Assembly (NCBI GenBank): GCA_015062345.1
Contig: SUUV01000001.1
Coordinates: 21,588-85,587 of the forward strand
Direction: 5' to 3'
Source of the DNA: Alphaproteobacteria bacterium
Lineage (GTDB): Bacteria; Pseudomonadota; Alphaproteobacteria; RF32; CAG-239
Length of the DNA: 64,000 nucleotides
The notes under the pieces were generated by a model. The model was not told where the DNA came from. It made no database searches and worked only from the letters and a program-made list of their open reading frames with translations. Position numbers and translations under genes: made by a program. Positions 4,147-38,688 of this stretch are shown one piece after another (within the stretch, counting starts at the first letter, position 1; each line of letters begins with the position of its first letter).

Positions 4147-4150
4147 ATCT

Positions 4151-4438: not shown

Positions 4439-4506
4439 AATTCAACCTTTCTTAAAAACTTTTTGTTGTTTTAACAACTTACGAATTAACTTGCAAGCAA
4501 AAACTT

Positions 4507-6285: not shown

Positions 6286-6287
6286 AT

Positions 6288-7013: not shown

Positions 7014-7258
7014 CACATACTCCATATATCTACAAAATAAAAGATTCTTTTTGATTGGCAAGAGTTTATAAACATATCCCCCAAAAAATATTTATCATCG
7101 GAACACAACTTCCAAATTGGTCTTGACACTAAACCAAAAATAAACTACAAATATAACTGAACAGTCAAGTTGGCTGTTTGGAACCTAACAATTCCTATGT
7201 AACGCGTCTTTTAGTATAGGGACGTTAAATTTTATACGCTGACCGGTTATTTAAAAAA

Positions 7259-7362
7259 TGACTGGAAGGCGGTAAAATAAGCCTTGCGGTCAATATACCG
7301 CGCTATTTCGTTATTGTAGTTGTTAGCTTCCAGTCGCTTTTTTGTTAAGAGCGATTTTTTTA
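7259..7362 (+). repeat. copy 1 of a conserved structured element of about 100 nt, bounded by 9-bp inverted repeats (gactggaag...cttccagtc) and followed by a short hairpin and a T-run
   Basis: About 80% identical to the reverse complement of 11712-11811. It lies 35-50 nt upstream of the downstream gene, in that gene's orientation. Confidence 0.6.
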
Positions 7363-7396
7363 TTTAAGTAACTTAATTAAAAAAAGGAAGATAATT

Positions 7397-8185: not shown

Positions 8186-8222
8186 GCAAACAGCATAATC
8201 ATATTGTTAAATTACCCAAAAA

Positions 8223-8256
8223 AAGAGAGGTTCATTTTGAGCCTCTCTTTTTTTTG
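8223..8256 (+). terminator. Rho-independent terminator
   Basis: Stem agagagg/cctctct followed by T8, directly after the pilin-like gene. Confidence 0.6.
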
Positions 8257-8291
8257 TTTACAAAAACAAAAAATGAATTTTCCCATTAAAA

Positions 8292-8939
8292 TCAGTTTTC
8301 GTTTTTAAGATACCACTTAAACATCAGCACATTTGAGCTTCTTTCGCAATAAAGCGTATATCCGTAAAGCAAAATGGCATAAATTCCTACACTGTGATCA
8401 AGCAAGTAGTAGCGGATATTATCCATAAGCTTATCGATTCGCTTTTTCTTTTTGCAAGACAAAAAACATTTTGCTTTCATCTTTGAGAGCTTGGCAAACC
8501 GCTTTTTAAGACTGATGATATGAAGCAACACCTTTTCAAACTCAACGGCAAATTTTGCATCAGCTACTAAAGGCAGTGTTCTTATCACCTCCGGCATAAA
8601 ATAGTACTCATACCACATTTGAGCTCGCTCGGCACAACTTGGTGGCGAAAACACATCTTTAAGAGCATTTTCGATAAAATCTATTTCTGTTTGCTCAGGG
8701 CGAGCCAGATAGCCAAGTCCTTCTTTTGCATGCTTGCTCAAAGCATGGTCGATTCGGGTAGTATATTCGTATAAAGCTACATTTTTTAAGATGTGCGAAA
8801 ACGAATAAGCCAATTCTTCGGGCGGCAGATTTCTTAAATCAAACAAATCTTTCGCCGGAAGCTCAAAATAACTTGCAACATCATACTCTCCGGTAAGATG
8901 TGGCCGCTTTAAAAAAAGCTTCTTGGTAATATGTATCAT
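8292..8939 (-). CDS. hypothetical protein
   Basis: 215-aa ORF with no recognisable motif. Confidence 0.45.
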   Translation of the reverse strand: MIHITKKLFLKRPHLTGEYDVASYFELPAKDLFDLRNLPPEELAYSFSHILKNVALYEYTTRIDHALSKHAKEGLGYLARPEQTEIDFIENALKDVFSPPSCAERAQMWYEYYFMPEVIRTLPLVADAKFAVEFEKVLLHIISLKKRFAKLSKMKAKCFLSCKKKKRIDKLMDNIRYYLLDHSVGIYAILLYGYTLYCERSSNVLMFKWYLKNEN

Positions 8940-9017
8940 AATTTAAAAAAAATTTAGTTATGAGCGCAAGTTAGCATACACTCATAACTAAGTCAACAAT
9001 CAAAGTTATTATCTTAC

Positions 9018-9653
9018 TTAAAAACCAACGACTTTTTTAGCCGCTTTCAAATAATTGGTATTTGGCATTTCGCTTAAACCCAAAGCTTTAACCGCAGTTT
9101 TCATATCTTCATAATTTTCACTTTCGCAACATGCGGTTTCAACTAAAGCGCCATTAAACCAAACATATGCATATTCACAAATTACACCGTTTACCGAAAA
9201 CCCGTATCTTTTCTTTTCAACGGTTACCAAAGTTAAATCATTATGCGATTTTACCATTTCACAAAACTCATCAAAAGAATACGATTCTTTATCTAATGTC
9301 ATCGCAACTTGCAAATTTGATAAAATTGCGGATAGTTCTTCTTTTTTAACCGGAAATTGAAATTTGCCTCGTGGTTGAAAAATTTCATATCCGTCGGGAG
9401 TTTGTCCGACTTTTGTTTTAATATCCAATAAACCGTCACGAACTTTAACATTTGCATCGTTGGTGTTTTTGGATAAAATATATGTTTCAGCCGGCATAAC
9501 CCGAGCTTTATACAAGGTAGCTTTGCATTCCCACATATGTTCTTTTACACTTTCGATAATATCTTTGCCAAACACTCTAAACTCGGCACGAGGAGTTAGT
9601 TTGGCGGCATCATCTGCCGATACGGCAACATTTTTTGCATAAACATCTGTCAT
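9018..9653 (-). CDS. hypothetical protein
   Basis: 211-aa ORF lying immediately downstream of the CYTH gene at 9673-10143 on the same strand. Confidence 0.45.
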   Translation of the reverse strand: MTDVYAKNVAVSADDAAKLTPRAEFRVFGKDIIESVKEHMWECKATLYKARVMPAETYILSKNTNDANVKVRDGLLDIKTKVGQTPDGYEIFQPRGKFQFPVKKEELSAILSNLQVAMTLDKESYSFDEFCEMVKSHNDLTLVTVEKKRYGFSVNGVICEYAYVWFNGALVETACCESENYEDMKTAVKALGLSEMPNTNYLKAAKKVVGF

Positions 9654-9672
9654 TTTTATTGTCCCTTAAAAA

Positions 9673-10143
9673 TTACTTTTTCCATGTTGTGTACGGATTG
9701 TTTACCAGATTAGAATTAAAGTATCTGGGGTCTCCCGAAACTTCTTGACCTATCCATTGAGGCTTTTCAAACACTTGATCTTCACTTTGAAGCTCAACTT
9801 CAGCCACAATTAAACCTTCATTTACACCGAAAAACTCATCAATTTCCCAAACAAGTCCGTTGTAGGGCACTTTATAACGAGCCTTCTCAATGATGGGTTG
9901 TTCAGCCAAATGTTTTAACATTTCAACACAATCGTTATACGGAATCTCATATTCAAATTCCATACGAGTAACACCCACTGTCGGACCTTTAACGGTTAAA
10001 TATGCTTTGTCATCAATAGTTCTGATACGAACTGTTCGTTCTTTTATGCTGTTAAGATAACCCTGACGATAGTGAGTACCTTTTGCCAATGTCCGCCAAG
10101 CATCACCCGTAACTAAAAACTTGCGTTCAATTTCCTTTGCCAT
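9673..10143 (-). CDS. CYTH-domain protein (CyaB/thiamine-triphosphatase-like triphosphate tunnel enzyme)
   Basis: The N-terminal EIERKFLV matches the ExExK signature of CYTH domains; the protein is 156 aa. Confidence 0.7.
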   Translation of the reverse strand: MAKEIERKFLVTGDAWRTLAKGTHYRQGYLNSIKERTVRIRTIDDKAYLTVKGPTVGVTRMEFEYEIPYNDCVEMLKHLAEQPIIEKARYKVPYNGLVWEIDEFFGVNEGLIVAEVELQSEDQVFEKPQWIGQEVSGDPRYFNSNLVNNPYTTWKK

Positions 10144-10267
10144 TATTTTTTCCTTATAAGAGTTAAAACATATGTCATATTTTTATCTGCTAAACAATCG
10201 CTTGTCAAGTTTTGAAAAACTCAATCAGTCTAAAAAAATATATGCTTTCTGTCTCGTAGGTTCGACC

Positions 10268-10321
10268 CCTTAAGCCCGACCTGACATACCAACAAAAAAA
10301 GCCCACCCGAAAGGGTGAGCT
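10268..10321. repeat. partial third copy of the tRNA-Leu-associated repeat; only the terminator module cccgacctgacataccaacaaaaaaagcccacccgaaagggtgagc is present
   Basis: A 46-nt exact match to the 3' end of both 210-bp repeat units at 12188-12233 and 12398-12443. The hairpin gcccaccc/gggtgagc with an upstream A-run acts as a terminator for the minus-strand lipoprotein operon. Confidence 0.7.
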
Positions 10322-10340
10322 TAAGATAAATTTAGAAAAG

Positions 10341-10757
10341 TCATTCAACTTCATGCGCTTCTAAAAATAAAGATTGTCCCAAAGCATTAAAGAAATTCTG
10401 ATATGGTATAGGATTATCCAAAGCTTTTAATCCAACTTGCCCATTAGCTCTTACAACAATTTGTTTATCATTAATAGCTCTTATTGAAACAGTTAATTTA
10501 GAAGCATGAATGTGACTAAATGATGTTCCGCTTATTGTGCCTAATTTTTCATCAGCTCTTTCAATTATAAAACCTAAATCTTGCATTGTAGAAATTACGG
10601 CCCTTAGCACTAATGATTTATCATTTGTATCAAATGACCGTGATTGATAATTTCGCATTTGTACTTGAGATTGAGATGTCCCTAAAACATCATTATGAGT
10701 TGATGCACAACCATTTAAAGCAATGATGATTATTAAAGATGATAAAATTTTTTTCAT
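10341..10757 (-). CDS. lipoprotein, paralog family A
   Basis: Lipobox LNGC in MKKILSSLIIIIALNGCAST. It shares LQDLGF...EKLG...SG and a C-terminal FF..L.QS.FL with the next gene. Confidence 0.6.
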   Translation of the reverse strand: MKKILSSLIIIIALNGCASTHNDVLGTSQSQVQMRNYQSRSFDTNDKSLVLRAVISTMQDLGFIIERADEKLGTISGTSFSHIHASKLTVSIRAINDKQIVVRANGQVGLKALDNPIPYQNFFNALGQSLFLEAHEVE

Positions 10758-10765
10758 TTTTACTC

Positions 10766-11284
10766 CTATATATTGTTAGCAGTTAAAAATACAGATTGGC
10801 TTAATTTATCAAAGAAATCTTTATAAATTTGTTCATCTTGTATTTTTTCTATTCTTGCTTGATTCATATTATTCCAAATAACGCGAGCAAATTCCACCCT
10901 TATGTTATAGCTCTGATTATCATGATTTTTTGTAGAAACGAGTGTTACATAAATTTTTTGTGAAACATCATAAACAGGTTGAGTACCAAATAAGACGGCT
11001 AAGAGAATTACACCTACTTTTTGTCCCGCAGAACCGGCCTCTCTATCTTTATTTGCTGTTATTAGTCCAAGTTTTGTTTCACTTTCATCTAAAGTAAAAC
11101 CTAAATCTTGTAAAACTTGAGCGGACGCAATCAATAATGTTTCTTCGTCATTAGTTTCATATCTTCTTGTTTCTAATTGTCTTCTAGCTAAATATTGCTC
11201 ATCTAATTTGTAATAGTGGTCATAAGAAACACATCCGGAAACAATAAAAGATATCATTGAAAATAAGATAAAAATCTTTTTCAT
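10766..11284 (-). CDS. lipoprotein, paralog family A
   Basis: Start moved to MKKIFILFSMISFIVSGC (AAGGAG RBS). It is a paralog of 10341-10757. Confidence 0.6.
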   Translation of the reverse strand: MKKIFILFSMISFIVSGCVSYDHYYKLDEQYLARRQLETRRYETNDEETLLIASAQVLQDLGFTLDESETKLGLITANKDREAGSAGQKVGVILLAVLFGTQPVYDVSQKIYVTLVSTKNHDNQSYNIRVEFARVIWNNMNQARIEKIQDEQIYKDFFDKLSQSVFLTANNI

Positions 11285-11294
11285 ATCACACTCC

Positions 11295-11690
11295 TTAGAA
11301 AGTAGATGTTCTGTAAGCAAAATCTCGAACTAAACCATTTTTATCGAATTTAACAATTATAGTCAGAGTTCTCTGGTTAGAAGATGCCTTAAAATCATGA
11401 CTTCCTGCTGCAAATAAAAGTAACCATACGCCGCTTTGAGAGGATGAAGATTGAACATTGGTAGAAACTTTGTCATAAACCCAAGTTTCTCTATGTTCTG
11501 TATCTGTTGTAACCATATTAGGAGAGCCTAAAACTTCAACAACAGCAGAAGATGGCATACCTATCTTAATTTCGGTTTGAGCCTTTGCAACTGTCATTTT
11601 TTCTTCATTTAAGCTATAATCAGTTGTTGAGCAAGAAGATAAAAATGGTATTGTTACAATAGCTAAAGTTAATAGAATATTTTTTTTCAT
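11295..11690 (-). CDS. lipoprotein
   Basis: Start moved to MKKNILLTLAIVTIPFLSSC (lipobox LSSC, GAGGT RBS). It is the first gene of a three-gene lipoprotein operon. Confidence 0.55.
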   Translation of the reverse strand: MKKNILLTLAIVTIPFLSSCSTTDYSLNEEKMTVAKAQTEIKIGMPSSAVVEVLGSPNMVTTDTEHRETWVYDKVSTNVQSSSSQSGVWLLLFAAGSHDFKASSNQRTLTIIVKFDKNGLVRDFAYRTSTF

Positions 11691-11711
11691 AAGTACCTCG
11701 CAATAACTAAG

Positions 11712-11811
11712 TTGTCGCTTTGATGAAAAGCGACTGGAAGTTGAGAACAATACCACTAGTTATTGTGCGATATATTGACTTTGAAAGTTTATTTTATCGC
11801 CTTCCAGTCAT
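11712..11811 (-). repeat. copy 2 of the inverted-repeat-bounded structured element, in minus orientation
   Basis: Its reverse complement, tgactggaaggcgataaaataa...cttccagtcgcttttcatcaaagcgac, aligns with 7259-7362. It is followed (in gene sense) by a perfect 8-bp hairpin gtcgcttt/aaagcgac and lies 22 nt upstream of the lipoprotein ATG. Confidence 0.6.
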
Positions 11812-12020
11812 AAAACCGGTAGGCGAAAATATCGTCTTTTCGCATAGACGCTAGTGGATATTAGGTTCTCACACCTAAATCAGGCCATCAATCCTGACAC
11901 TCACATAATATATAGTTTATGGAAAGAAATCAAGAATTTTTATTTTATTCATATGGTATTGTTGTTAATAATGCTTTTAACTTGTTGGCGTTGATATAAT
12001 TACTTTTGAAATAAATAATT

Positions 12021-12446
12021 TTATTGGTGCGCTATGTTTGAAAAAAAAGTATTTTTTTCAAGGCCGGAATGGCTTCGCAATATTATTGCTTCGCCGACCT
12101 TGTTCGCTCGGGCATTCCGCCCGACCGGCGTATATATCCGCCTGCGAACTGCGGTTCAAACCGGCACCGTGCCGCTTCTCACCCGACCTGACATACCAAC
12201 AAAAAAAGCCCACCCGAAAGGGTGAGCTTTTTTTATTGGTGCGCTATATTTGAAAAAAAGTATTTTTTCAAGGCCGGAATGGCTTCGCAATATTATTGCT
12301 TCGCCGACCTTGTTCGCTCGGGCATTCTGCCCGACCGGCGTATATATCCGCCTGCGAACTGCGGTTCAAACCGGCACCGTGCCGCTTCTCACCCGACCTA
12401 ACATACCAACAAAAAAAGCCCACCCGAAAGGGTGAGCTTTTTTTAT
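12021..12446. repeat. two tandem 210-212-bp GC-rich repeat units, each starting with a copy of the tRNA-Leu 3' end (ttattggtgcgcta) and ending with the tRNA terminator hairpin
   Basis: 12021-12232 and 12233-12442 are nearly identical, differing by a few SNPs and one A. They are about 55-60% GC against a background of about 33%. The 61-71-aa ORFs inside them are almost certainly spurious. Confidence 0.85.
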
Positions 12447-12533
12447 TGGTGCGCTAGGCCGGAATCGAACCGGCACGGGATTGCTCCCAACAGATTTTAA
12501 GTCTGCAGCGTCTACCTGTTCCGCCACAAGCGC
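12447..12533 (-). tRNA. tRNA-Leu (anticodon UAA), encoded CCA
   Basis: The reverse complement folds as a cloverleaf. The acceptor stem GCGCTTG/CTAGCGC has one mismatch. The anticodon stem is GCAGA/TCTGT with loop CUUAAAA, giving anticodon UAA. There is a long variable arm GGGAGCAATCCC. The T-arm is GCCGG-TTCGATT-CCGGC, and the 3' end is ACCA. Confidence 0.8.
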
Positions 12534-12649
12534 ATATCAATCTTAAACACCCTTATAAACATATTTTTTTTAAAATGCAACACTTATTTTGTGAAAAATT
12601 TAATATATTTATTATATCGTTTTATGAGCACTTATTTGGAGATGAAAAT

Positions 12650-13171
12650 ATGACCGTGTTTCAAGATAAAATTCGCATTGTTCCCGATTTTCCCAAAAAA
12701 GGAATTGAGTTTTACGATATAACAACCCTTATAAAAGATAAACAAGCTTTTGCCGAAGTTATAGATTTGTTGTATGAAAAATTTAAAAACTATAATTTAG
12801 ATTATGTTGTTGCCATTGAATCCAGAGGATATCTGTTTGGCGCTCCTCTTGCCTACAAACTTGGATGCGGACTTGTTATCATCAGAAAACCAAACAAACT
12901 TCCCGCTAAAACAGAACGCATTGAGTATGGTTTAGAATACGGAAAAGATATTTTGGAAATTCATACCGATTCGATTGAGGCCGGCAAAAAAGTTTTAATT
13001 ATTGATGATTTACTTGCCACCGGAGGTACAATCAAAGCAGCCTGCTCATTGGTTGAAAAACTTCAAGGACATATAAAAGCTCTGGCTTTTGTAGTTGAGC
13101 TTAAAAAATTAAACGGCAGAAAACACCTACCGCAAAATTTACCAATTGTTTCATTGTTGCAAGCAGATTGA
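12650..13171 (+). CDS. apt: adenine phosphoribosyltransferase
   Basis: PRPP-binding motif VLIIDDLLATGGT with Apt-like size and sequence. The start was moved to MTVFQDKIRIVPDFPKKGI, which has a GGAG RBS. Confidence 0.85.
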   Translation: MTVFQDKIRIVPDFPKKGIEFYDITTLIKDKQAFAEVIDLLYEKFKNYNLDYVVAIESRGYLFGAPLAYKLGCGLVIIRKPNKLPAKTERIEYGLEYGKDILEIHTDSIEAGKKVLIIDDLLATGGTIKAACSLVEKLQGHIKALAFVVELKKLNGRKHLPQNLPIVSLLQAD

Positions 13172-14200
13172 TTATTTTCTTAACCTTTTTGAAGCTGCAC
13201 ATATTTGCATAATGGTATAGCTCAAAATTTGTTGTGCCGGAAAATTTGTGGTTTTACAATCTTTTTCACACTGATACAACAAATCAAGCACATCTAAAAC
13301 CGATTTTTTGTTCCAGATACTAATCTGCAACCTTAAATCATCTTTTCTGAAAAACATTACCGGTGGCCTTATCGCAGATATAATTTCATCTGCCCTTTTG
13401 TTTTTTTCATAAGTTGCGACATATCCCAACAAATTTAAAAAATGATTACTTATGCTTCTGGCAATGGTAACAATCTCAATGCCTTCATTGAAAAGTTCTT
13501 TATATGCATCTATGGCCTTTTCGGTATATCCGCAACCGACATAATAACACAAATCTTCCAGCGATGAACTTGATGTATCACTTATGGCGGTTTTTACATC
13601 ATCAATTTCAATATTGCGTTTTGTACCCAAATATGTAATGAGCTTATCCATCTCACCCAAATTTGCTTTTTTATCATTTGAAAGACGAGCGCATAACAAC
13701 CCAAAAGCCGCATCTGAAATGGTAATTTGGCTTTTAATTAAATATTCTCTCACAAATGAGCTTATATCTTTTTCTCTGTCATCATAACAACTTACAAGCG
13801 CAAAATCGGCTCGGTCTTTTCCCAAGTTTACCAAAGATGATTTTGTGTTTAATGTTGAAGAAGTTAAAATCAGCAACGCATCAGATTTTGTATCTGCAAC
13901 AAGTTCTTTTATATGCTTGGTTAAGTTGTCGTTTACATCTTTTACAATAACAACCCTTCTTCCGCCCAACAATGATTGCGCATTATATTCGCCAAACAAA
14001 ATACCGATATCTTTGCTTAGCGTTTCCATATTTAAACTGACAACTCTGAAAGCATCAGTCAAATCAGGGCACACCGTTTTTGCAAATTGCGTGCAATATT
14101 CGGCAATTTTTCCCTCGTTAGAGCCATAAATTACTACGCATTTTATCCTCAAATCAGGATTTTTAACATATTTTGCAACATCAGGGTCTTTAAAATTCAT
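13172..14200 (-). CDS. holA: DNA polymerase III delta subunit
   Basis: 342 aa. Its position downstream of lptE and leuS is the conserved proteobacterial leuS-lptE-holA synteny. It has a delta-like N-terminus (VVIYGSNEG...). Confidence 0.7.
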   Translation of the reverse strand: MNFKDPDVAKYVKNPDLRIKCVVIYGSNEGKIAEYCTQFAKTVCPDLTDAFRVVSLNMETLSKDIGILFGEYNAQSLLGGRRVVIVKDVNDNLTKHIKELVADTKSDALLILTSSTLNTKSSLVNLGKDRADFALVSCYDDREKDISSFVREYLIKSQITISDAAFGLLCARLSNDKKANLGEMDKLITYLGTKRNIEIDDVKTAISDTSSSSLEDLCYYVGCGYTEKAIDAYKELFNEGIEIVTIARSISNHFLNLLGYVATYEKNKRADEIISAIRPPVMFFRKDDLRLQISIWNKKSVLDVLDLLYQCEKDCKTTNFPAQQILSYTIMQICAASKRLRK

Positions 14201-14759
14201 TTGGGTTTCCGCGCTTGGTTAAACTTGAATGAAAATATGCTCCCATACGAAGCGAAATGTCATTGGCCAAAATTTTTGCCGCATCTTTTTCAATTTTTTT
14301 CTGCGCATAAGTTGTGGAATACGGATTGGCCATAATGTCATAACCTAAATAAGCAATTGAATTTCCGGCTACCAATTCTTCATTATTGTCGGCATCATAC
14401 AAACGATATTGCACCATATAACGCACTCTTTCTCTGGTTGCGGTAATGTCATCACGCATAGCTTGTTCGGTAACATCTTTTTTAATGTTAAACACCTCTA
14501 AACGATATTTAGGAGTGGCCGGAACACCCTTAGGAGTCAAATTATCCAATAAATCGTTACGAATAAGTTGTCCCAATCTGTCGGCAATCGGCTCTATTTT
14601 AATTTGTGCAATTTCATCTGAAATTGAAGTATCAAATTCACCCTTATAATACCATTTTTCATCGGACTTGCGTTCAACATATAACGGTTCAAAGCCACAG
14701 CCTGCCATCGTTAATAACAGCATGCAAAAAACACTTATTTTTTTAATTTTATGCAACAA
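14190..14759 (-). CDS. lptE: LPS-assembly lipoprotein LptE
   Basis: Lipobox in LLLTMAGCGFEPLY, a size of 189 aa, and a position between leuS and holA. Confidence 0.65.
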   Translation of the reverse strand: MLHKIKKISVFCMLLLTMAGCGFEPLYVERKSDEKWYYKGEFDTSISDEIAQIKIEPIADRLGQLIRNDLLDNLTPKGVPATPKYRLEVFNIKKDVTEQAMRDDITATRERVRYMVQYRLYDADNNEELVAGNSIAYLGYDIMANPYSTTYAQKKIEKDAAKILANDISLRMGAYFHSSLTKRGNPNEF

Positions 14760-17205
14760 TGTTCACAATCCTATTTTTAACAACTATGATTTTTTTAATT
14801 TCTTTGCCCTGAATTTGACGAGCAACATTTTCCAATGCCAAAGCTTTGGCTTTTACATCATCGTCAGAGCTGTCTTTTTGTACTTCAATTGTACCGCGCA
14901 TTTTACCGCAAAGCTGAACAGCAACAGTAACCATGTCGTCTTGAGCAAGTGCTTTGTCACCAACCGGCCAAGTTTCTTTAACAATCAATGTGTCATGACC
15001 TAATCTTGCCCACATTTCTTCTGCAATGTGAGGAACAAACGGGCTTAAAAGTTTTAACAATGTTTCGTATAAAACTGTCGGAATTTTATCCATTGATGAC
15101 ATATAGTTTACATATGTCATCAATGAAGAAACCGCAGTGTTAAATTTCATCTGGTCAATGCGTTCGGTAACTTCAAGTATGCATTTGTGCATCGCTCTTA
15201 AATCTTTTGTATCAGCCTCAATGTTATAAACTTTTTTGAACAGATTGAAAATTTTTCCGATAAAACGATATACACCCATCAAACTGTCTTCAGACCACAT
15301 GGCAACCTGATCAAACGGACCTATAAACATCTCATACAAACGAAATGTATCAGCGCCGTAATTGTTAACAATGTCGTCAGGGTTTATAACATTACCGCGA
15401 GATTTTGACATTTTTTCACCGTTTTCAGCCAAAATCATACCATGTGATGTGCGTTTATTGTACGGCTCTTTTGTCGGCACATATCCGCAATCGTACAAAA
15501 ACTTATGCCAGAAACGAGAATATAACAAGTGCAATGTGGTGTGTTCCATACCGCCATTGTACCAATCGACATTCATCCAATAATCCAAAGCTTCTTTGGA
15601 GGCAAACTCTTTGTCGTTGTGAGGGTCGCAATAGCGCAAGAAATACCAAGAAGAACCGGCCCAGTTGGGCATAACATCAGTTTCTCTTTTAGCTTTCTTA
15701 CCACATTTTGGGCAAGTGGTATTTACCCAATCTAAAGCTTTTGACAACGGCGATTCGCCTTCATCATTGGGCAAATAATCGGTCACTTCGGGCAATGTTA
15801 ACGGCAAATCTTCTTCTTTTAGAGGTTGCCAACCGCAATGCTCGCAATATACCATCGGAATGGGCTCACCCCAATAGCGCTGACGAGAAAATACCCAATC
15901 TCGCAATTTGAAGTTGATTTTGGCTTGTCCGAACCCGTTTTTGAGAGCATATTCAATTGCAGCTTTCATACCGTCTTCTTTATTTAATCCGTCCAAGAAA
16001 CCCGAATTTATGTGTAAACCGTCTTCTTCAAAAGCTTTTTGGGATATATCTCCGCCTTGTAAAACCTGAATAATCGGCAAATTAAAAGCTTTGGCAAAAT
16101 CATAATCTCGTTGGTCGTGGGCAGGAACAGCCATAATTGCACCTGTTCCGTATCCGGTTAAAACATAATCGGAAATAAACACCGGAATCATTTTTCCATT
16201 AAACGGATTTTTAGCTTTTATACCTTTTAATTCAACACCGGTTTTAGAATCATCGGCCGTGCGCTGAAGTTCCGATTTTTTGGCGGTGTCTTCAACATAT
16301 TTCTTAATTTCTTCGGGATTTTCAAATTTATCCATATATTTTTGCACAAACTCGTGCTCCGGAGCCATAACCATATATGTCACACCAAAAGCCGTATCCG
16401 GACGAGTGGTAAACACTTTGAGTTTGTCGTCGCCAAACTCAAAATCAAGCTCAGCACCTTCGGAGCGACCAATCCAATTTGTTTGTTGCGATTTTACTCT
16501 GTCAATAAAGTCAAGACCTTCTAAATCATCAATCAGTCTATCGGCATATTTGGTAATGGCAATTATCCATTGTTCTTTATCTTTTCTGACAACCTCGGCT
16601 CCGCATCTTTCACAACAACCGTTAACCACTTCTTCATTAGCCAAACCAACTTTGCAGGCCGGACACCAGTTAATGGCCATTTTATCCTTATAAGCCAAGC
16701 CTTTTTTATAAAGCTGAATGAACATCCATTGTGTCCATTTGTAATATTCGGGAGACGATGTATCAATACATCTGTCCCAGTCAAAACCAAGACCTATTGA
16801 TTTTAACTGACGAGTAAAGTTTTCAATGTTGGCTTTGGTGGAAACAGCCGGATGAACACCGGTTTTAATGGCATAGTTTTCAGCCGGCAAACCAAAAGCA
16901 TCAAAGCCCATCGGATATAACACATTATATCCTTGCATGCGTTTTTTTCGGGCAATGGTATCAAGGGCAACATACGAACGAGGGTGTCCCACATGCAATC
17001 CGGCGCCGGAAGGGAAAGGAAACTCAACCAAAGCATAAAACTTTTCTTTGGTTTTATCTTCAGTTACCTTGTAAGCTTTTTCATCTTCCCAAATTTTTTG
17101 CCATTTATTTTCAATGGTCTTAAAGTTATATCTGTCTTCTGTTTTCCACTGTTCTTGCCACTGTTCAAAAGTTTGTTTACCGTTATAGCGCGGATTACCG
17201 TTCAT
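14749..17205 (-). CDS. leuS: leucyl-tRNA synthetase
   Basis: 818 aa with a class I HIGH motif (HVGHPRSY) and KMSKS, plus a LeuS-specific editing-domain and C-terminal architecture. Confidence 0.95.
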   Translation of the reverse strand: MNGNPRYNGKQTFEQWQEQWKTEDRYNFKTIENKWQKIWEDEKAYKVTEDKTKEKFYALVEFPFPSGAGLHVGHPRSYVALDTIARKKRMQGYNVLYPMGFDAFGLPAENYAIKTGVHPAVSTKANIENFTRQLKSIGLGFDWDRCIDTSSPEYYKWTQWMFIQLYKKGLAYKDKMAINWCPACKVGLANEEVVNGCCERCGAEVVRKDKEQWIIAITKYADRLIDDLEGLDFIDRVKSQQTNWIGRSEGAELDFEFGDDKLKVFTTRPDTAFGVTYMVMAPEHEFVQKYMDKFENPEEIKKYVEDTAKKSELQRTADDSKTGVELKGIKAKNPFNGKMIPVFISDYVLTGYGTGAIMAVPAHDQRDYDFAKAFNLPIIQVLQGGDISQKAFEEDGLHINSGFLDGLNKEDGMKAAIEYALKNGFGQAKINFKLRDWVFSRQRYWGEPIPMVYCEHCGWQPLKEEDLPLTLPEVTDYLPNDEGESPLSKALDWVNTTCPKCGKKAKRETDVMPNWAGSSWYFLRYCDPHNDKEFASKEALDYWMNVDWYNGGMEHTTLHLLYSRFWHKFLYDCGYVPTKEPYNKRTSHGMILAENGEKMSKSRGNVINPDDIVNNYGADTFRLYEMFIGPFDQVAMWSEDSLMGVYRFIGKIFNLFKKVYNIEADTKDLRAMHKCILEVTERIDQMKFNTAVSSLMTYVNYMSSMDKIPTVLYETLLKLLSPFVPHIAEEMWARLGHDTLIVKETWPVGDKALAQDDMVTVAVQLCGKMRGTIEVQKDSSDDDVKAKALALENVARQIQGKEIKKIIVVKNRIVNIVA

Positions 17206-26532: not shown

Positions 26533-26594
26533 TTCGTTTCCCTATACTGTTTGTTTATACCGTTTTTTATAATCTGTTTCTGTTTGAGTCTGTA

Positions 26595-26645
26595 TACTAC
26601 ATATTGTGTTAATTTAAAGTAAAGAAACAATATATAGTATACACA
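26595..26645. promoter_or_regulatory. possible tandem NrdR boxes upstream of nrdD
   Basis: Two imperfect palindromes, actacatattgtgt and acaatatatagtat(acac), with centres about 31 bp apart, lying 65-110 bp upstream of the nrdD start. Confidence 0.3.
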
Positions 26646-26994
26646 AAAAATTTTCAGCTAATGATATTATGATTATTGTTTGCGAATTTCATATTGCAAA
26701 AATATAAAATTATGCTCAAGCAATATTTAGTTAAAAAAAACAAAAAATCGGCTATGTCATTATAAATGCGCACATATTTTTTTTCTAAGTCGTGGATAAA
26801 TTTATTAACAAAACAAAATCTACGCAAATTCAATATGTTAGTGCTAATCTATTGATATTGAAAAACAAAAAAAGTTATCCCCACAACCTTAGGTTAGTTA
26901 TCAGGATATAATCATACTTTTTAGGTGTATTTTTATGCTTTAACGAGTCGCATTTATACAAATTGCAAGAATCAATAAATTTATTAAGATACTT

Positions 26995-27190
26995 AGATTT
27001 CCATTTAATGCTCTTTGGAGGTTGTATAATTTCTTACCCTATCTGTCATTGTGGTAACATCTTCATTTGCATCTCTGTCATAAAACACATCTATCGCCTT
27101 TGAAATTTTAGTTTCAGGCAATTTATACGCATCGGGATAGATTCCTTTTAACGCACGATATTTATATCCGAATTTCCTTTGCAGATTATG
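26995..27190 (-). pseudogene. orphan internal fragment of the 320-aa gene (codons about 15-75; no start)
   Basis: About 90% DNA identity to 30040-30235. It translates as ...HNLQRKFGYKYRALKGIYPDAYKLPETKISKAIDVFYDRDANEDVTTMTDRVRNYTTSKEH* and abuts the 3' end of the 166-aa secreted-protein gene. Confidence 0.6.
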
Positions 27191-27195
27191 GTAAG

Positions 27196-27696
27196 TTACA
27201 TATTAAAACGATTATCCCAATCATTTAAATTTTTTATTTTCTTAAAATCAATCTGTTTTTCTTCGTCAGACATATCTTCAATTTCGTATTTAACGGTATC
27301 AATAAGTTGCCGTATAACATTTTTGGCATTATCAACTGCTAAAGCAGAAGCCGTAACCTTACGAATTGAGCCATAAAAATACTGTCCGAAATCACTATTT
27401 GTATTTATTGCATATTGAATATCAATCGATGAATATATAAAAGTTTTTAAGGCTTTTTTTGTTTCTTCTGATTTGTTGTAATAAAACTCATCTATAATTT
27501 CATATCCGACATTTAACAAACAGTTTATAGTCCCGTCACTTACTTGTATAATTTCTTCATCGTTTATACTATCGTTAGTATTATAAAATTCTAAGCATTG
27601 GCGATATTCTTTATCAAAATTTTCTATTTGTTCAAATTTTGTTTGAGCGTTGGCATTCATAGATACAAAAATTAAAAAAAATAAAATATATCGCAT
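27196..27696 (-). CDS. secreted hypothetical protein
   Basis: Signal peptide MRYILFFLIFVSMNANA and an AAAGGAAAAG RBS. It is embedded between two fragments of the 320-aa gene. Confidence 0.5.
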   Translation of the reverse strand: MRYILFFLIFVSMNANAQTKFEQIENFDKEYRQCLEFYNTNDSINDEEIIQVSDGTINCLLNVGYEIIDEFYYNKSEETKKALKTFIYSSIDIQYAINTNSDFGQYFYGSIRKVTASALAVDNAKNVIRQLIDTVKYEIEDMSDEEKQIDFKKIKNLNDWDNRFNM

Positions 27697-27856
27697 TGGC
27701 TTTTCCTTTCAATTATTCGCCAGTATAATAATTTTTATATTTTTGTAAATATTCATTTTTTTTATTTAAATATAATTTATCAAATTCATTACTATCACTA
27801 TAGTAGTTTTTTCTTCTATTATACCAACCATTGATATGGTTTATATTTTGATGATT

Positions 27857-28060
27857 TCGGTCAACTTATACGCATCGGGATAGATTCCTTTTAACGCACG
27901 ATATTTATATCCGAATTTCCTTTCTAAATTATGGTCATTTTCATCAATAAATGTTCCCATATATGTCTCATATTGCCACAATTAAAATGTCTTATTTTGT
28001 CTTACGATGTACGAAAATGTCCGAAAAATTTAACGAATTTACAATCTTAAATGTTTTTTA
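27857..28060 (-). pseudogene. orphan copy of the promoter region plus the first 38 or so codons of the 320-aa gene
   Basis: Matches 30130-30400, including the upstream aaaatgtccga repeat region. It translates as (M)GTFIDENDHNLERKFGYKYRALKGIYPDAYKLTEIIKI*. The original ATG-CCA is changed to TGG-CAA. Confidence 0.55.
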
Positions 28061-28096
28061 ATGACCATAAAAAGCACCTTATCACTCGTTAAATAT

Positions 28097-28303
28097 TCAA
28101 AAATATCTAAAGATGATATTAAAAAATATAGAAAAAACATACCACAATATCAGTAACAACAGAATAATAAGAGGTGTGTACATTAGTATACAAAACAACG
28201 ATGATAATTTTGTGATATATTCCACAATTTTTAATGCTTTTTTGTTTTCACAAAAAGCATTAAATTTTTCTGACAGTTTATTTATTCCATCTGTTATTTT
28301 CAT
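28097..28303 (-). CDS. small membrane protein, hypothetical
   Basis: 68 aa with a single TM helix (LFCILMYTPLIILLLLILWYVFSIFF). Low confidence. Confidence 0.25.
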   Translation of the reverse strand: MKITDGINKLSEKFNAFCENKKALKIVEYITKLSSLFCILMYTPLIILLLLILWYVFSIFFNIIFRYF

Positions 28304-28481
28304 AATCTAAACCCTCAAGCCACACTCTACAATTTTTATCCGGATTATTCAAGCCATAATTAAGCCCTTCAAAATTGTTTTTCATATCTTTATAACTATC
28401 AGATAGACTTACTGCCCAAGGGGTATTTCCTTTTATTGATTTTATGACCACACCATATTCATCAAAACAAATATAATGCAA
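28278..28481 (-). CDS. small hypothetical protein
   Basis: 67-aa ORF in the mosaic locus. Low confidence. Confidence 0.25.
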   Translation of the reverse strand: MHYICFDEYGVVIKSIKGNTPWAVSLSDSYKDMKNNFEGLNYGLNNPDKNCRVWLEGLDYENNRWNK

Positions 28482-28550
28482 AACATCACTAGATTAAACA
28501 AAAAAATCCATTTAATAAAAGTCCATTGAGGATTACTTTTTAATCCTAAT

Positions 28551-28739
28551 TTACCATAATTTTTTGAAATATCTTTGTACCAATTCATCACAATCACCTT
28601 CTGGATATTTAATCCCTAAGAATTCTCCCGTTAAGTTTGCATCCATATCTTCATAAGATGCTAACGGTGTATTTGCTCCTGATTTTACATCATGATATTC
28701 TTTAAGTCCAGATAAATTTTCAGCCCATAATGAACTCAT
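28551..28739 (-). CDS. small hypothetical protein
   Basis: 62-aa ORF in the mosaic locus. Low confidence. Confidence 0.25.
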   Translation of the reverse strand: MSSLWAENLSGLKEYHDVKSGANTPLASYEDMDANLTGEFLGIKYPEGDCDELVQRYFKKLW

Positions 28740-28885
28740 TAAACCTCTTTGAGCATTAACGCAATTTATATATGCATGTTTATATTTATCTGATAATCCT
28801 TTTGTATAACGATAATCAATAAAATCTTTTGCAATTGGGAAAGGTGCTAATAATGGAGTCAGACTTCCTTTTCTTGCTAGTTTTT

Positions 28886-29098
28886 TTAATCTTCTTGTGT
28901 CATATTACCCTCTTGCTTAATTGCTTTTTGTAAATTAGGATACATTTCATTATTCCCAACTTGTGCAAAACCCGATGGCGCTTTGATTGTGACGGAAGAA
29001 TAACTTTCCTGCGGTTTTGGTTTCGGAGCCTCCCCAAAATATTTAGCTTTCCACTCTTGGTCTTTGGAGGTTGTATAATTTCTTACCCTTAAAGTCAT
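28886..29098 (-). CDS. orphan module: a conserved mid-segment of the 320-aa gene (from its internal Met65) fused to a different 45-aa C-terminus
   Basis: MTLRVRNYTTSKDQEWKAKYFGEAPK aligns with TMTDRVRNYTSSKDQEWKAKYFGESPK of the full-length gene and then diverges. DNA homology covers 28985-29063. Confidence 0.35.
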   Translation of the reverse strand: MTLRVRNYTTSKDQEWKAKYFGEAPKPKPQESYSSVTIKAPSGFAQVGNNEMYPNLQKAIKQEGNMTQED

Positions 29099-29283
29099 GG
29101 TAAATTTTTATTTTCTCGCAACCGTTTTATATTTATAGTTCTATTCCTATTGACTTTTAGCAAAATTATATTATACAATCCAGCTGAGATTATTGAAGTG
29201 CAGAAAGGCCAGCTGCCACCATATATTATATATATGTATTAATGATGACGGATAGATCGCCGCCCGTCCAATAATCTCGTTGT

Positions 29284-30246
29284 TTATATTTTGTTTCTAT
29301 ACATACTTTTGATAACAGTTTGTCCGTTTACCGGATTTTGTGATATATAACCATAATCTGCTGTATATGTTCTTGGATAAACTACTTGCTGTATGTGTGG
29401 ATGTTTGCTTTCTGTAACCATATTAGGCCCCTCGTGGAATAATCTTTTTGCCATTTCAACCAGTTGTTCCGGTGTATAACCTTCATTCAAGCGTTTATGG
29501 TACAACTTTTTAACTACATTAGCAGGTATATATGCATTTTTATTTAACAATGGTAAATTTCCATTTTCACGCAAGCAATTAACATTTCTCATTGTACCGG
29601 GGTGAACTTTACCAAAATTTACATCTTGAAAATTATTTCCTTGTCTTAATTGATTTTTTAATTCATTTCTGCCTCTATATCTTGTATATTCGGTTATTGC
29701 TTTATCAATGCCTTTAACTCCTTTATATAAGCCATATCCGCTTGTTAAAGCCTCTGCTCCATACTGAGCAATCGCTCCTCCGATTTGTGCCGGAATAGTT
29801 GTCCCATCATTATATTGTTTCATATTCAAGTAATCAGTTTCATTTACTCCGATACCTGTCTTTTCTTTTAACCAATCATATACTCCTAATGTACCTCCCG
29901 ATAATGCCTTATCAACACCATAAACCATATCGGCCACATTCTCTGACATATAATCGCCAAAGCCTTTTTTTGTTTTATGAATTTTTGGACTTTCCCCAAA
30001 ATATTTAGCTTTCCACTCTTGGTCTTTGGAGGATGTATAATTTCTTACCCTATCTGTCATTGTGGTAACATCCTCATCGGCATCTCCGTCATAAAATACA
30101 TCTATCGCCTTTGAAACTTCCGTTTCGGGCAATTTATACGCATCAGGATAGATTCCTTTTAACGCACGATATTTATATCCGAATTTCCTTTGTAAATTAT
30201 GGTCATTTTCATCAATAAATGTTCCCATATATGTCTCATATGGCAT
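29284..30246 (-). CDS. hypothetical 320-aa protein; the intact copy of the mosaic-locus gene
   Basis: No signal peptide. N-terminal segments of about 100 aa are duplicated three times downstream. The C-terminal roughly 200 aa are unique. Confidence 0.6.
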   Translation of the reverse strand: MPYETYMGTFIDENDHNLQRKFGYKYRALKGIYPDAYKLPETEVSKAIDVFYDGDADEDVTTMTDRVRNYTSSKDQEWKAKYFGESPKIHKTKKGFGDYMSENVADMVYGVDKALSGGTLGVYDWLKEKTGIGVNETDYLNMKQYNDGTTIPAQIGGAIAQYGAEALTSGYGLYKGVKGIDKAITEYTRYRGRNELKNQLRQGNNFQDVNFGKVHPGTMRNVNCLRENGNLPLLNKNAYIPANVVKKLYHKRLNEGYTPEQLVEMAKRLFHEGPNMVTESKHPHIQQVVYPRTYTADYGYISQNPVNGQTVIKSMYRNKI

Positions 30247-30300
30247 TTTTCTTTCCTTTCATAAAATTAAAGTTAATGTAATAATATTCATATATCACAA

Positions 30301-30380
30301 TAAATCACAATTTGCCACAATTAAAATGTCCGATTTTGTACGAAAATGTCCGAAAATGTCTTACGATGTCCGATTTTACA
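30301..30380. promoter_or_regulatory. array of direct repeats (aaaatgtccga, equivalent to TCGGACATTTT on the gene strand), three or four copies upstream of the 320-aa gene
   Basis: Sequence is aaaatgtccgatttt-gtacg-aaaatgtccgaaaatgtc-ttacgatgtccgatttt. It is partly duplicated at 27976-28030. Confidence 0.45.
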
Positions 30381-30507
30381 TAAAATTTTGCTTGCATTAC
30401 GATAAATAAAAGTGTATAAGCGAAACTGTTTAAAGTTGGTGGTTCGGGCTAAAAGGCATGCCTGACCGCTTTTAGTTTAATCCATTTTATAAAGGAAGGA
30501 TTTTAAA

Positions 30508-37230: not shown

Positions 37231-38688
37231 TCAATTAGATTTATCTTTTACTGTAACATATTTTTGATTCGGAGCATGTGAAGAAGATTGAGTTCTGATA
37301 AGCAATCCTTTATCTATGAGTGGTTTTATAATTTTATTCATAAAATGAACTCTACTTGTATATTTAGAAATAGTCATAATTTCAACCAAAGATTTAGGCT
37401 CAATACAAAAATCTAATATTTTCTCTATAAGATATGTTACTTGATCACTTACTTGATCACTTACTTGATCACTTACTTGATTACTTACTCTATGTATAAT
37501 ATCATCAAAACAATTTATTTGCCAATCTAGTTTAAATACTGTTCCATCTGTCAACATCGGAGCATATCCTGCATATATTTTTGCATACTTAGCAATATTC
37601 CTAATGCCGGACCCAAGTTCTTCTGCCCAACCTATTTCCTTAAAAAAGCGCGCAATAACAGGATTTTTCGGATATGGTGTACTATTATCCGGATTAATAT
37701 TACCATAAATATATGGTTTATTTCCGTTTTCCGCATATATTTTATTCTTTTCAATAATTAATCTGGACGGATAATGATCTGTAAACTCTCTATGCATCAG
37801 AAAATTAATTGCAATTTCTCTAAATAAAATACTCCTCAAATCAACTCGAGCATCTCCTTCTAAATAAAACGGTGAAGGCAAATGCTTAGCAATAAACATC
37901 ATTATACGCTCATAGCTTTCTATAAGATTAGTTCTGATATCATCTCTATCATCATATCTTTCAATGTTTCTGATTCTTAAAATCAAATCTGTCTTATAGT
38001 GAGGTAAAACAGATTGAATAACTTCATCTTTTCCAAACAATAAAACACAAGCTAGTGTATATCCTTCTTTACCCGATAAATAATCTGTCTTATACAAACC
38101 GGCACTTTTTAACAGCTGTTCATTTGTAAGATTCTTCCAAGGATGGTCAGCCTTCCTGATTACAGCCATTGTACGACATTTGTTTATAACATCTTCTCTT
38201 AAATGATTTATGCTGATTCCGGAATAAATATCATTTTCTGAATATGTCTTATCTTTATTAGCATACAATTTTGCAATTTGCTTTGGTTGTTGAGTAATGT
38301 CAATATCTCCATCAGCAGCACTGCGTATATAGATTTTATTACAACAAAAATGAACTTCTGAACTTGCAGGAACAAGAATATATAAAATCTGTTTACCCTC
38401 GATTTTTATTTCTTCAACCGATAAATATAAAGGAGGATTAAATTTTGAGATATTATTTATGGTATTTGTAAAATCTTTCTTCATTTGAGCAATTTTATCT
38501 TTATCAATACCCAAAACTTCACCATTATCACTAACACCCAGTAAAATATGCCCTCCCAAAGTATTTGAAAAAGCACATACGGTTTCATAAATGCTTTTAG
38601 GTAACAATCCGTGTTGTGCGCTTTTAAATTCGGTTCTTATCCCTTCACCATGAGTTATAAGTGTTTTTATATTTTCAATCATCTGCAA
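37231..38688 (-). CDS. AlbA_2 (divergent AAA / Schlafen-like) domain protein with a C-terminal wHTH; putative DNA-binding regulator
   Basis: The N-terminus EGIRTEFKSAQHGLLPKSIYETVCAFSNTLGGHILLGVSDNGEVLGI is the classic AlbA_2 signature. The C-terminal winged helix is often annotated as RecG-C-terminal-like. It contains a (VSDQ)n repeat. Confidence 0.7.
   Translation of the reverse strand: MQMIENIKTLITHGEGIRTEFKSAQHGLLPKSIYETVCAFSNTLGGHILLGVSDNGEVLGIDKDKIAQMKKDFTNTINNISKFNPPLYLSVEEIKIEGKQILYILVPASSEVHFCCNKIYIRSAADGDIDITQQPKQIAKLYANKDKTYSENDIYSGISINHLREDVINKCRTMAVIRKADHPWKNLTNEQLLKSAGLYKTDYLSGKEGYTLACVLLFGKDEVIQSVLPHYKTDLILRIRNIERYDDRDDIRTNLIESYERIMMFIAKHLPSPFYLEGDARVDLRSILFREIAINFLMHREFTDHYPSRLIIEKNKIYAENGNKPYIYGNINPDNSTPYPKNPVIARFFKEIGWAEELGSGIRNIAKYAKIYAGYAPMLTDGTVFKLDWQINCFDDIIHRVSNQVSDQVSDQVSDQVTYLIEKILDFCIEPKSLVEIMTISKYTSRVHFMNKIIKPLIDKGLLIRTQSSSHAPNQKYVTVKDKSN
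37434..37489. repeat. in-frame 12-bp tandem repeat (ttacttgatcac, three perfect copies plus a degenerate fourth) encoding (VSDQ)n
   Basis: Direct reading gives gttacttgatcacttacttgatcacttacttgatcacttacttgattacttactc. Confidence 0.8.

Follow-up and report, generated by a model that had tools for sequence, protein, structure and literature searches.

Polymorphic toxin systems combine a constant protein body with variable C-terminal toxins and are accompanied by orphan C-terminus (CT) and immunity cassettes (Zhang et al. 2012, PMC3482391). Among phage proteins, MuF toxins are proposed to be packaged into the capsid and injected (Jamet et al. 2017, PMC5576092), and polyvalent and PBECR proteins have also been described (Iyer et al. 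2017, PMC5512222). The skipping-rope RNA motif, which is functionally unexplained and "compellingly associated" with a nearby protein in either orientation, is reported from phage genomes too (RF02924; Weinberg et al. 2017, PMC5737381). These are the closest described systems to a 4-kb chromosomal island of Alphaproteobacteria bacterium (assembly GCA_015062345.1), which is flanked by nrdD and rpmI in the window analysed here, the whole 64,000-nucleotide stretch from position 21,588 to 85,587 of contig SUUV01000001.1, numbered from its first letter. The island contains one intact gene of 320 amino acids (aa), followed by re-copied pieces of its 5' part, and is probably a polymorphic toxin/effector-immunity array that owes its form to homologous recombination among tandem copies of a short N-terminal part, termed NT below. 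Such arrays are a known kind of system; what is new here is the NT domain, the link to podophages and the presence of an RNA gene in the immunity slot.

The locus resembles the contact-dependent inhibition (CDI) CdiA-CT/CdiI, Rhs and MafB systems in its constant 5' gene body and variable C-terminal toxins, in the cognate gene downstream of the lysozyme-like cassettes, in its series of cassettes that lack a promoter but still carry part of the constant region, and in variation between strains attributed to homologous recombination. It differs from them in its short constant part, of about 85 residues and at the very N-terminal end, with the result that entire gene starts have been duplicated, one of them with its promoter; in the lack of VENN, PxxxxDPxGL and MafB_N; in the lack of a type V or type VI secretion system (T5SS, T6SS) or signal-peptide context; in having an NT without a Pfam or PHROG family; and in one cassette type having an RNA partner. 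VENN and PxxxxDPxGL were absent from the alignments and T5SS and T6SS partners from the sampled window open reading frames (ORFs) and fetched loci, and membership of T6SS, CDI or Rhs was rejected, as none of their markers is present.

The similarity to MuF and PBECR proteins lies in toxin-like domains (BECR RNases and lysozymes) carried on a module of the tailed-phage head/packaging region, a location seen for relatives of the window locus, which itself lies between nrdD and rpmI, and in abundance in the gut. The differences are the lack of a MuF domain (PF04233; no Pfam match in the 320-aa protein or in 60 NT-family members), an association with Alphaproteobacteria and SU10-like podophages instead of Firmicutes temperate siphophages, and the occurrence of arrays also in plain chromosomal sites, with orphan cassettes and lipoprotein or membrane immunity candidates.

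An N-terminal domain joined to polymorphic C-termini

Across 36 homologues the same unannotated NT of about 85 residues precedes different C-termini (related loci and proteins are referred to by L and P numbers). One set of homologues shares the whole 320-aa protein, and a second shares the first ~85 residues only, at up to 95% identity, followed by 100-300 unrelated aa. The boundary is sharp, falling after W-K-x-K-Y-F-G-E and before a Pro/Lys/Gln linker of PKPKPQ type. An exhaustive hidden Markov model search with an NT profile recovered 83 clusters at 50% identity, with the match starting within the first 10 residues in 78 of them and cluster lengths of 38-865 aa, plus one internal match in a 2460-aa protein that is probably unrelated. 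Pfam annotation of 60 members identified SAA (five), Tlde1 (five), GH108 (three), YkuD (two) and Phage_lysozyme (one) domains, with a weak match to SLT, and overall NT (ending KYFGE, KYFNP or LYGLD) is joined to at least eight unrelated C-terminus types. The Tlde1, GH108, lysozyme-like and SLT-like C-termini attack peptidoglycan.

Three hallmarks of polymorphic toxins were found in the family: an N-terminal region common to homologues with a C-terminal-most domain that varies, C-terminal domains from toxin families, and orphans with 5' homology (the P0031-type L039 allele, P0033-P0036 and an L010 orphan that starts ...IWKEKYF). A cognate downstream gene is evident for the lysozyme-like C-terminus, after which lipoproteins of 180-202 aa, all of one family, are encoded in L004 (two copies), L008, L010, L021, L023, L024 and L028, and the Tlde1 C-termini of L004 are followed by membrane proteins of ~100 aa; for the 51-, 68- and 166-aa ORFs of the window the assignment is positional, and the intact gene has an RNA instead. 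A 140-aa protein on an IMG/VR phage contig (L076 7246-7668, minus strand), ending ...CLDELKERGWEKYIPGKW, resembles the C-terminus of the lipoprotein family (…CLQELLDRGWDKYIPVEIP).

A second N-terminal family, NTB (MSNKNLEAFEQMRKL... and MSNKNLEAFEQMRKLTKEAKKFY...), is represented by L004 9712-10563 and 11575-12357, L010 7130-7408, P0003 and P0024, and carries some of the same C-terminal domains (Tlde1 and BECR-like); therefore at least two handles draw on one cassette pool. The first-pass annotation, made from the sequence of the window, had likened the locus to polymorphic toxin/immunity cassette loci, and this comparison is borne out by a constant N-terminus on many toxin C-termini and by orphans that follow the intact gene. 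It had also considered re-copying of an N-terminal part unusual, which loses its force as the re-copied part is the constant recombination-handle region of the protein, here short and N-terminal. All nameable source records of the NT family are uncultured animal-gut "Alphaproteobacteria bacterium" metagenome-assembled genomes (MAGs), several with four to six loci each, and the family is apparently restricted to uncultured, low-GC gut Alphaproteobacteria.

Organisation of the island and its rearrangement among relatives

The nrdD border of the island was identified by PF13597 (E 1e-178) and the other border, rpmI-rplT-pheST, through Pfam annotations of the syntenic locus L008. GC content is 0.28-0.29 at 27-29 kb against ~0.36 for the whole window, in agreement with the AT-rich locus described earlier; every ORF listed in that description exists, and a 51-aa membrane ORF (28597 to 28442) and an RNA gene (29183-29288, plus strand) had been missed. 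From rpmI towards nrdD the features are as follows.

30323..30363 (-): 10-bp phased repeat array of four to five units upstream of the intact gene (Tandem Repeats Finder, period 10, 3.8 copies)
30281..30322 (-): promoter-like TTGTGA-18-TATTAT with three 10-bp TTGTGA repeats, then ribosome-binding site (RBS) gaaaggaaa (consensus match only)
29284..30246 (-): intact 320-aa gene (ORF list)
30246-29992 (-): NT domain, aa 1-85 of the intact gene
29991-29677 (-): Lys/Pro linker and Gly-rich "mid" domain, aa 86-190 of the intact gene
29676-29287 (-): BECR/PBECR-like RNase-fold domain, aa ~191-320 of the intact gene, as modelled
29183..29288 (+): gene of a skipping-rope RNA (Rfam RF02924), transcribed towards the intact gene as far as its stop codon
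29150..29179 (+): promoter of the RNA gene, sigma-70-type TTGACT-18-TACAAT (10 of 12 consensus matches)
28551..29098 (-): orphan cassette 1, NT codons 62-88, PKPKPQESYSS linker and SAA-like domain (frame translation, relatives)
28442..28597 (-): 51-aa membrane ORF over the 3' end of the SAA-like cassette (ORF list)
28278..28481 (-): toxin 3' stub of P0045/P0057 type (...SYKDMKNN.EGLN.GLNNPD.DCR...), the 67-aa ORF (tblastn/blastp)
28097..28303 (-): 68-aa membrane ORF after the stub, candidate orphan immunity gene (ORF list)
27855..28021 (-): beheaded unit, array/promoter part 28021-27973 fused to NT codons 3-41 at 27976-27855 (self-BLASTN)
27716..27859 (-): open frame of 48 codons beyond the NT breakpoint (…NGWYNRRKNYYSDSNEFDKLYLNKKNEYLQKYKNYYTGE, then a stop), conserved only in L007
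27196..27696 (-): 166-aa Sec-signal protein gene (ORF list)
26986..27201 (-): third NT fragment (codons 12-83, one indel), lacking both a start codon and a C-terminal domain (self-BLASTN)

Self-BLASTN of 26900-30450 against the whole 64-kb window (E-values 1e-8 to 1e-76) matched 30244-30123 to 27976-27855 (96%, 122 bp, codons 1-41), 30212-29998 to 27201-26986 (89%, 216 bp with one indel, codons 12-83) and 30051-29993 to 29089-29031 (98%, 59 bp, codons 66-85), and detected no further repeat copies in the window. The 5' part of the intact gene is accordingly present in three further copies of 89-98% identity, as had been reported; the promoter, which had been reported with each of them, recurs in one copy only (30360-30312 with 28021-27973, 84%).

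The syntenic locus of MAG RGIG4267 (L008/L009) has flanks 92.6% identical to those of the window over 5.9 kb and a different array, and two further relatives cover parts of the island. In the orders below, P is the promoter and CT1 the C-terminus of the intact gene.

Window: rpmI, P-NT-CT1, RNA, NT(62-88)-SAA frameshifted, 51-aa ORF, CT stub, 68-aa ORF, P'-NT(3-41)-tail, 166-aa gene, NT(12-83), nrdD
L008/L009: rpmI, pilin-like gene, P-NT-lysozyme-like, lipoprotein, P-NT-CT1, RNA, CT1 3' stub with degenerate RNA copy, P-NT...
L039: lipoprotein, NT(codons 23-88)-SAA in frame, 51-aa ORF, stub
L007: L039-type lipoprotein, NT(23-38)-tail, 166-aa gene, NT fragment

These four close relatives have four arrangements, with junctions inside the NT-coding sequence. 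Breakpoints fall at codon 23 in L007 and L039 and at codons 38-41 in the second copy of the window, and since the junctions differ between relatives, several sites within NT are involved and not one. An array of L039 or window type would yield the L007 structure by deletion between its NT(23-38) segments, and L007 may have arisen in this way. Comparison between strains had been set beforehand as the test against a one-off duplication, and the arrangements proved to be shuffled and not fixed. Independent metagenome contigs reproduce window positions 27129-27910 (L007, 97%) and 28297-29089 (L039, 95.7%), and for these two sets of junctions an assembly artefact is rejected on that basis.

The pilin-like gene of L008 (7381-8034), between rpmI and the first toxin gene, encodes a protein of 217 aa whose N-terminus resembles that of type IV pilins (…GRSMVEMLGVLAIIGVLSVGAIAGYQKA…); it has no Pfam match and is absent from the window.

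Displaced cassettes downstream of the intact gene

The loss of a single T at ~28888 has split orphan cassette 1 into the ORFs 29098 to 28886 and 28739 to 28551. The in-frame allele in L039/P0031 is 95.7% identical in DNA over 794 bp with a single gap, reading GAAGATTTAAAAAAA where the window reads GAAGATT-AAAAAAA. The repaired domain also ends the full-length toxins P0060 and P0067 (79-82% identity), and matches Pfam SAA weakly in the window copy (E 0.005) and down to 1.9e-11 in family members. P0035 and P0036 start MT[DL]RVRNYTT, as does the orphan of the window. The internal start proposed for this orphan is real, at Met63 and not Met65, with 59 bp of homology in place of the ~100 bp estimated, and the 62-aa ORF 28739-28551 is its out-of-frame continuation as judged from L039.

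In L018 a homologue of the 51-aa membrane ORF is found at the equivalent place, L020 and L028 contain partial matches, and the ORF is a weak candidate for a cognate immunity gene because part of its conservation falls in the overlap with the toxin. The 67-aa stub is 54-75% identical to the last ~50 residues of P0045/P0057 and also matches many loci. The small ORFs of 62-68 aa had been suggested as cargo or immunity-like genes, a view that fails for the 62- and 67-aa ORFs, both of which are toxin fragments. The 68-aa ORF has no homologue in the fetched loci and is a candidate orphan immunity gene by its position and hydrophobicity.

In the beheaded unit the promoter copy has lost ~65 bp including the RBS and ATG, and the sequence reads TTG-WQYETYMG...; a second promoter with codons 1-38 had been described here, and both the promoter and the 5' codons are present, with the homology running to codon 41. 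The 48-codon stretch that follows is possibly the tail of a deleted toxin C-terminus. The 166-aa protein has by inspection a typical Sec signal (MRYILFFLIFVSMNANA/Q), as previously noted, and no Pfam or PHROG match; a single homologue cluster was found among 5.8 billion proteins (P0037, 97%), and the context is the same in L007. It is a candidate orphan periplasmic immunity protein whose toxin would have been deleted. For the 51-, 68- and 166-aa ORFs alike, the candidate immunity role is suggested by position and predicted localisation.

The intact gene, its predicted RNase-fold domain and its promoter

The seven local ORFs have no significant match in Pfam or PHROGs, the 320-aa protein among them, and a search of PDB sequences with a profile of its C-terminal domain returned nothing. 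The protein had been described as lacking a recognisable domain, which holds for these family searches and not for its last ~130 residues, which model confidently as a BECR/PBECR-like RNase fold. The AlphaFold model of this domain alone, built on a 12-sequence alignment in place of a poor full-length model (mean predicted local distance difference test, pLDDT, 56), has a pLDDT of 94.8 and a predicted template modelling (TM) score of 0.87, and consists of helices followed by a four-stranded sheet. A fold search with this domain had been recommended, and its top matches are the ParE, RelE, BrnT and YoeB toxins and colicin D, all of BECR fold; the low-confidence full-length model gave the same list. 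Among predicted viral structures, the best matches are to an uncharacterised siphovirus protein (E 1.6e-5, TM 0.71), to a "minor capsid protein" and to parts of "PolyVal" proteins ~1000 aa long. The PBECR core has been described as an N-terminal helix that carries a His and a sheet of four to five strands, the fourth of which has Ser/Thr (PMC5512222), a configuration that fits the helix His (...RLFHEG) kept in most aligned homologues and the nearly invariant last-strand Thr (...QTVIKSMY).

The direct-repeat array at the promoter, already recognised in the first-pass annotation, has a period of 10 and the units cggacatcgt/aagacatttt/cggacatttt/cgtacaaaat/cggacatttt (consensus cgGACATTTT); the exact 10-mer CGGACATTTT occurs in the window only in the array and its promoter copy. 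Phased 10-bp arrays of ACA(W)3 precede NT genes in L004 (5837-5867), L008 (8042-8092, 9894-9924), L016 (3525-3565) and L021 (3608-3638, 5298-5328, 7887-7917), in the same place and, in distant lineages, with units GATACAAAnn (three to five) or AATACAWWT (four). Their presence across distant lineages suggests a shared regulator, for which the array is the presumed operator; a purely speculative candidate is the DUF6362/HTH protein encoded ahead of the terminase in L025. In the NTA2 subfamily (L020, L021, L025, L028, L029, L032), a leader of ~150 nt before the NT starts has two conserved hairpins ahead of the RBS, agtcgggaga...cccgac and ccgtctctgtttaaacaggggcgg followed by a T-run; these are absent from the lineage of the window, and look like an attenuator or antitermination target.

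A skipping-rope RNA at the stop codon

Downstream of the BECR-like C-terminus no protein gene is conserved across the loci compared, and ~110 nt past the stop codon are conserved across loci with proteins only 25-70% identical. This segment matches RF02924 at 29188-29276 (plus strand; 41.0 bits against a gathering threshold of 36.7, E 2e-7), and the L025 copy scores 37.2 bits. In a seven-sequence alignment 95.7% of cells are paired and 10 of 20 pairs have compensatory changes, a level reached by none of 500 shuffles, slid controls pair at 35-51%, and eight G-U cells fit the plus strand. The minimum free energy fold agrees with the covariation structure (z -2.4), and more covariation in stem P1 was found in L160, L163, L034, L022 and L161. 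The topology is cloverleaf-like, with P1 enclosing three hairpins, although ARAGORN detected no tRNA in the island.

With an alignment-derived model (R1), the RNA was found convergent at the stop codon in L010, L025, L001, L028, L011, L008, L022, L034-36 and the IMG/VR contig L076. In phage-like contigs it scores 62.7 bits (L160) and 26.2 bits (L163), and at L161 it is marginal (13.7 bits, E ~1) at the expected position. Apart from those of the window and L025, the copies were recovered with R1 only, Rfam in gathering mode having missed all copies in 25 loci, and a 16-mer pattern scan of IMG/VR gave mostly chance matches, with one real case (L076) among 80 listed loci. All the homologues of the intact gene that were examined have the RNA downstream (clearly in 12 cases, marginally in one), and extra copies occur in L008, where a second, degenerate one follows the CT1 stub, and in L023, without an adjoining CT1-type gene. 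A near-consensus -35 element (TTGAC[AT], 17-18-nt spacer) and a TAT-rich -10 are present in 13 of 14 instances, L034 having a degenerate -35 (TTGTTT), and most of the 14 have a U-run after P1, which is weak in the copy of the window. The marginal L161 copy (1-16471 of a 417-kb contig) stands at the stop codon of a 156-aa BECR-like homologue in a neighbourhood resembling a defence island, with RloB/AAA_21, SNase, resolvases, HipA/HTH_3 and an SNF2 helicase.

The multi-stem junction, the conserved loops and the link to one nearby protein family agree with what was described for skipping-rope RNA, and the present case differs in that the partner is a BECR/PBECR-like domain, the gene is convergent at the stop codon and the RNA stands in the immunity position of a cassette. 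No published function for this RNA was found in the literature searched. In type III toxin-antitoxin systems (ToxIN-like), an RNA antitoxin derived from repeats binds and inhibits an RNase toxin. Common to both is an RNase-fold gene that is closely linked to the gene of a small structured RNA and is met in settings of phage and defence, whereas here there is a single RNA on the opposite strand with its own promoter, instead of upstream tandem repeats on the same transcript, and the fold is BECR and not Kid/CcdB. The link between RNase and RNA here is one of gene adjacency, from which inhibition is predicted by analogy. The leading reading, held tentatively, gives the RNA a neutralising or regulatory role towards the RNase-fold domain inside the producing cell; the alternatives are a cis-antisense element or terminator, or a co-packaged ribonucleoprotein (RNP) partner.

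Association with podophage structural genes

In SU10-like podophages, genes that encode NT occur on both sides of the structural module and also within it. By tblastn, NT arrays flank a module of portal, 67-aa protein, scaffold-like protein and major capsid protein in L010, L014, L023/L025, L024/L027 and L028/L029, the same relatives in which the head/packaging location is seen, with the portal assigned to PF23899 (SU10_portal) and the major capsid protein to phrog_267 (E 3e-38). In INPHARED, the L010 portal has just a 20%-identity match, to a cyanophage. The 34-kb contig of L025 and L023 has the following gene order.

Genes 1-4: DUF6362/HTH protein; TerL (PF04466); NT genes; portal, scaffold-like and major capsid
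Genes 5-8: adaptor-like 221-aa protein; 529-aa virion protein; 133-aa protein; Gly-rich 221-aa protein
Genes 9-12: NT+mid proteins of 845 and 783 aa; fibre-like 370-aa protein; 79-aa protein; NT-lysozyme and lipoprotein

The 845- and 783-aa NT+mid proteins thus stand, in L023, between the Gly-rich 221-aa protein and the fibre-like gene, and these large proteins, like virion-module genes of the NT-less phages L160 and L163, share the mid domain (aa ~92-190) of the window protein. Near aroA, L034 (3071-4839) contains a chromosomal phage remnant with homologues of the podophage 94-aa and adaptor-like proteins, followed by an NT-less mid+BECR-like protein and the RNA.

Several observations weigh against a toxin array with a phage connection at this site. 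The window has no portal or capsid homologue by tblastn, neither phage structural genes nor a secretion system were found there, and ten ORFs sampled elsewhere in the window are ordinary chromosomal genes. An NT profile scan of IMG/VR returned no relatives, and a tblastn search of INPHARED with the whole 320-aa protein no match. The mid+PBECR combination is a conserved structural-module gene in true phages and may be a virion component and not a toxin. The spare cassettes of the window are all damaged (frameshift, stub, missing start) and may be debris instead of a usable reservoir, and it is from their position that the small membrane ORFs and the 166-aa protein are taken as immunity candidates. 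Because the window has no portal or capsid homologue, loading of capsids by NT would follow only by analogy with MuF toxins and PBECR proteins.

Some of these observations are shared with an alternative in which the island is a degenerate prophage remnant, NT, mid, PBECR and the RNA being podophage virion or early-infection parts in decaying accessory DNA. In its favour, mid+PBECR and the RNA are core genes beside terminase or nozzle genes in phage-like contigs of ~27-38 kb (L160, L163) and occur in the IMG/VR contig L076, the mid domain is common to large virion-module proteins, and the other cassettes of the window are broken. Yet no gene for phage structure, integration or replication is present in the island, which lies between nrdD and rpmI, NT is fused to the antibacterial effector domains Tlde1 and GH108 with cognate downstream genes, and the intact gene has retained its open frame together with a complete promoter/operator module. 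We consider a prophage remnant unlikely, while recognising that it is compatible with capsid-delivered toxins and that the difference is partly one of emphasis.

Origin of the repeats

A shared core of 28 bp at 27000-27028, 29035-29063 and 30027-30056 had been reported to mark the homology breakpoints. The core is real, but it is 27 nt long and lies at 27013-27039, 29062-29088 and 30024-30050 on the plus strand (three matches, none expected by chance). It could be read as a recombination or gene-conversion site, or as an antisense promoter, in a programmed cassette switch of the kind seen in antigenic variation: its three copies are exact or near-exact and close to homology breakpoints, and it holds TGTATAAT on the antisense strand, which had been taken for an extended -10 element. 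It is, however, ordinary coding sequence, the antisense of the DRVRNYT(T/S)SK codons of a conserved helix close to the end of NT, lying a few codons before the NT/C-terminus junction, with homology extending past it on both sides and the junctions of relatives lying elsewhere in NT, at the codons given above. The antisense TGTATAAT falls in the N-Y-T codons, where the NTA2 subfamily has [KN]-[DN]-Y-I, so the codons that create the motif are not conserved, and promoter-like matches in the region are no commoner than in shuffled sequence. No recombinase was found in the island. Both roles for the core were rejected on these grounds, and programmed switching, with the silent-cassette antigenic variation that had been suggested for the locus, is highly improbable.

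A one-off tandem duplication with pseudogenisation, or a repeat-induced assembly artefact, is just as improbable and already largely refuted: every downstream copy is truncated and the repeats (60-220 bp, 84-98% identical, coding copies 89-98%) lie in an apparently metagenome-derived genome, but the NT fragments are joined to different toxin C-termini that are intact elsewhere and are not copies of the intact gene, the arrangement varies among relatives, and junctions recur in independent contigs from other samples.

Elsewhere in the window, two 17-nt palindromic boxes upstream of nrdD (26591-26607 and 26627-26643; TGTATACTACATATTGT and ACAATATATAGTATACA, mutually 94% complementary) resemble tandem NrdR boxes. 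Low-GC patches at 37231-38688 (minus strand), encoding a Schlafen AlbA_2/HATPase_c_4 protein, and at 59979-61721 (plus strand), encoding a 580-aa ankyrin-repeat protein, may each represent an accessory or conflict gene.

Proposed evolution and biological meaning of the array

The island is best explained as one of several chromosomal arrays of the NT polymorphic toxin/effector family. RecA-type homologous recombination between the tandem NT repeats would generate the arrangement, with incoming cassettes swapping the expressed C-terminus, old ones sliding downstream as orphans, and deletions from repeat to repeat beheading units. Orphan immunity genes that were kept may still guard against the toxins of kin, and the 10-bp repeat operator would co-regulate the chromosomal arrays. 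NT may steer its cargo into phage capsids for ejection into target cells, as proposed for MuF toxins and polyvalent proteins, and the skipping-rope RNA would be an RNA that occupies the immunity slot of an RNase-fold cassette. Taken as a whole, a fuller scheme is possible and rather doubtful, in which the RNA is the immunity/antitoxin or obligate RNP partner of the BECR RNase, the pair forms one cassette, and NT loads diverse cargo into podophage capsids, with the chromosomal arrays supplying it in trans.

On this reading a repeat mosaic becomes recognisable as a conflict locus, and the newly defined NT domain family, with its 83 clusters, provides a polymorphic-toxin handle tied to podophage structural genes. 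If capsid loading is true, the MuF/polyvalent idea of effectors injected by phages would come to include another domain, another host phylum and cassette arrays in the chromosome. The skipping-rope RNA, unexplained since its description in 2017, gains a concrete protein partner with a fixed gene geometry.

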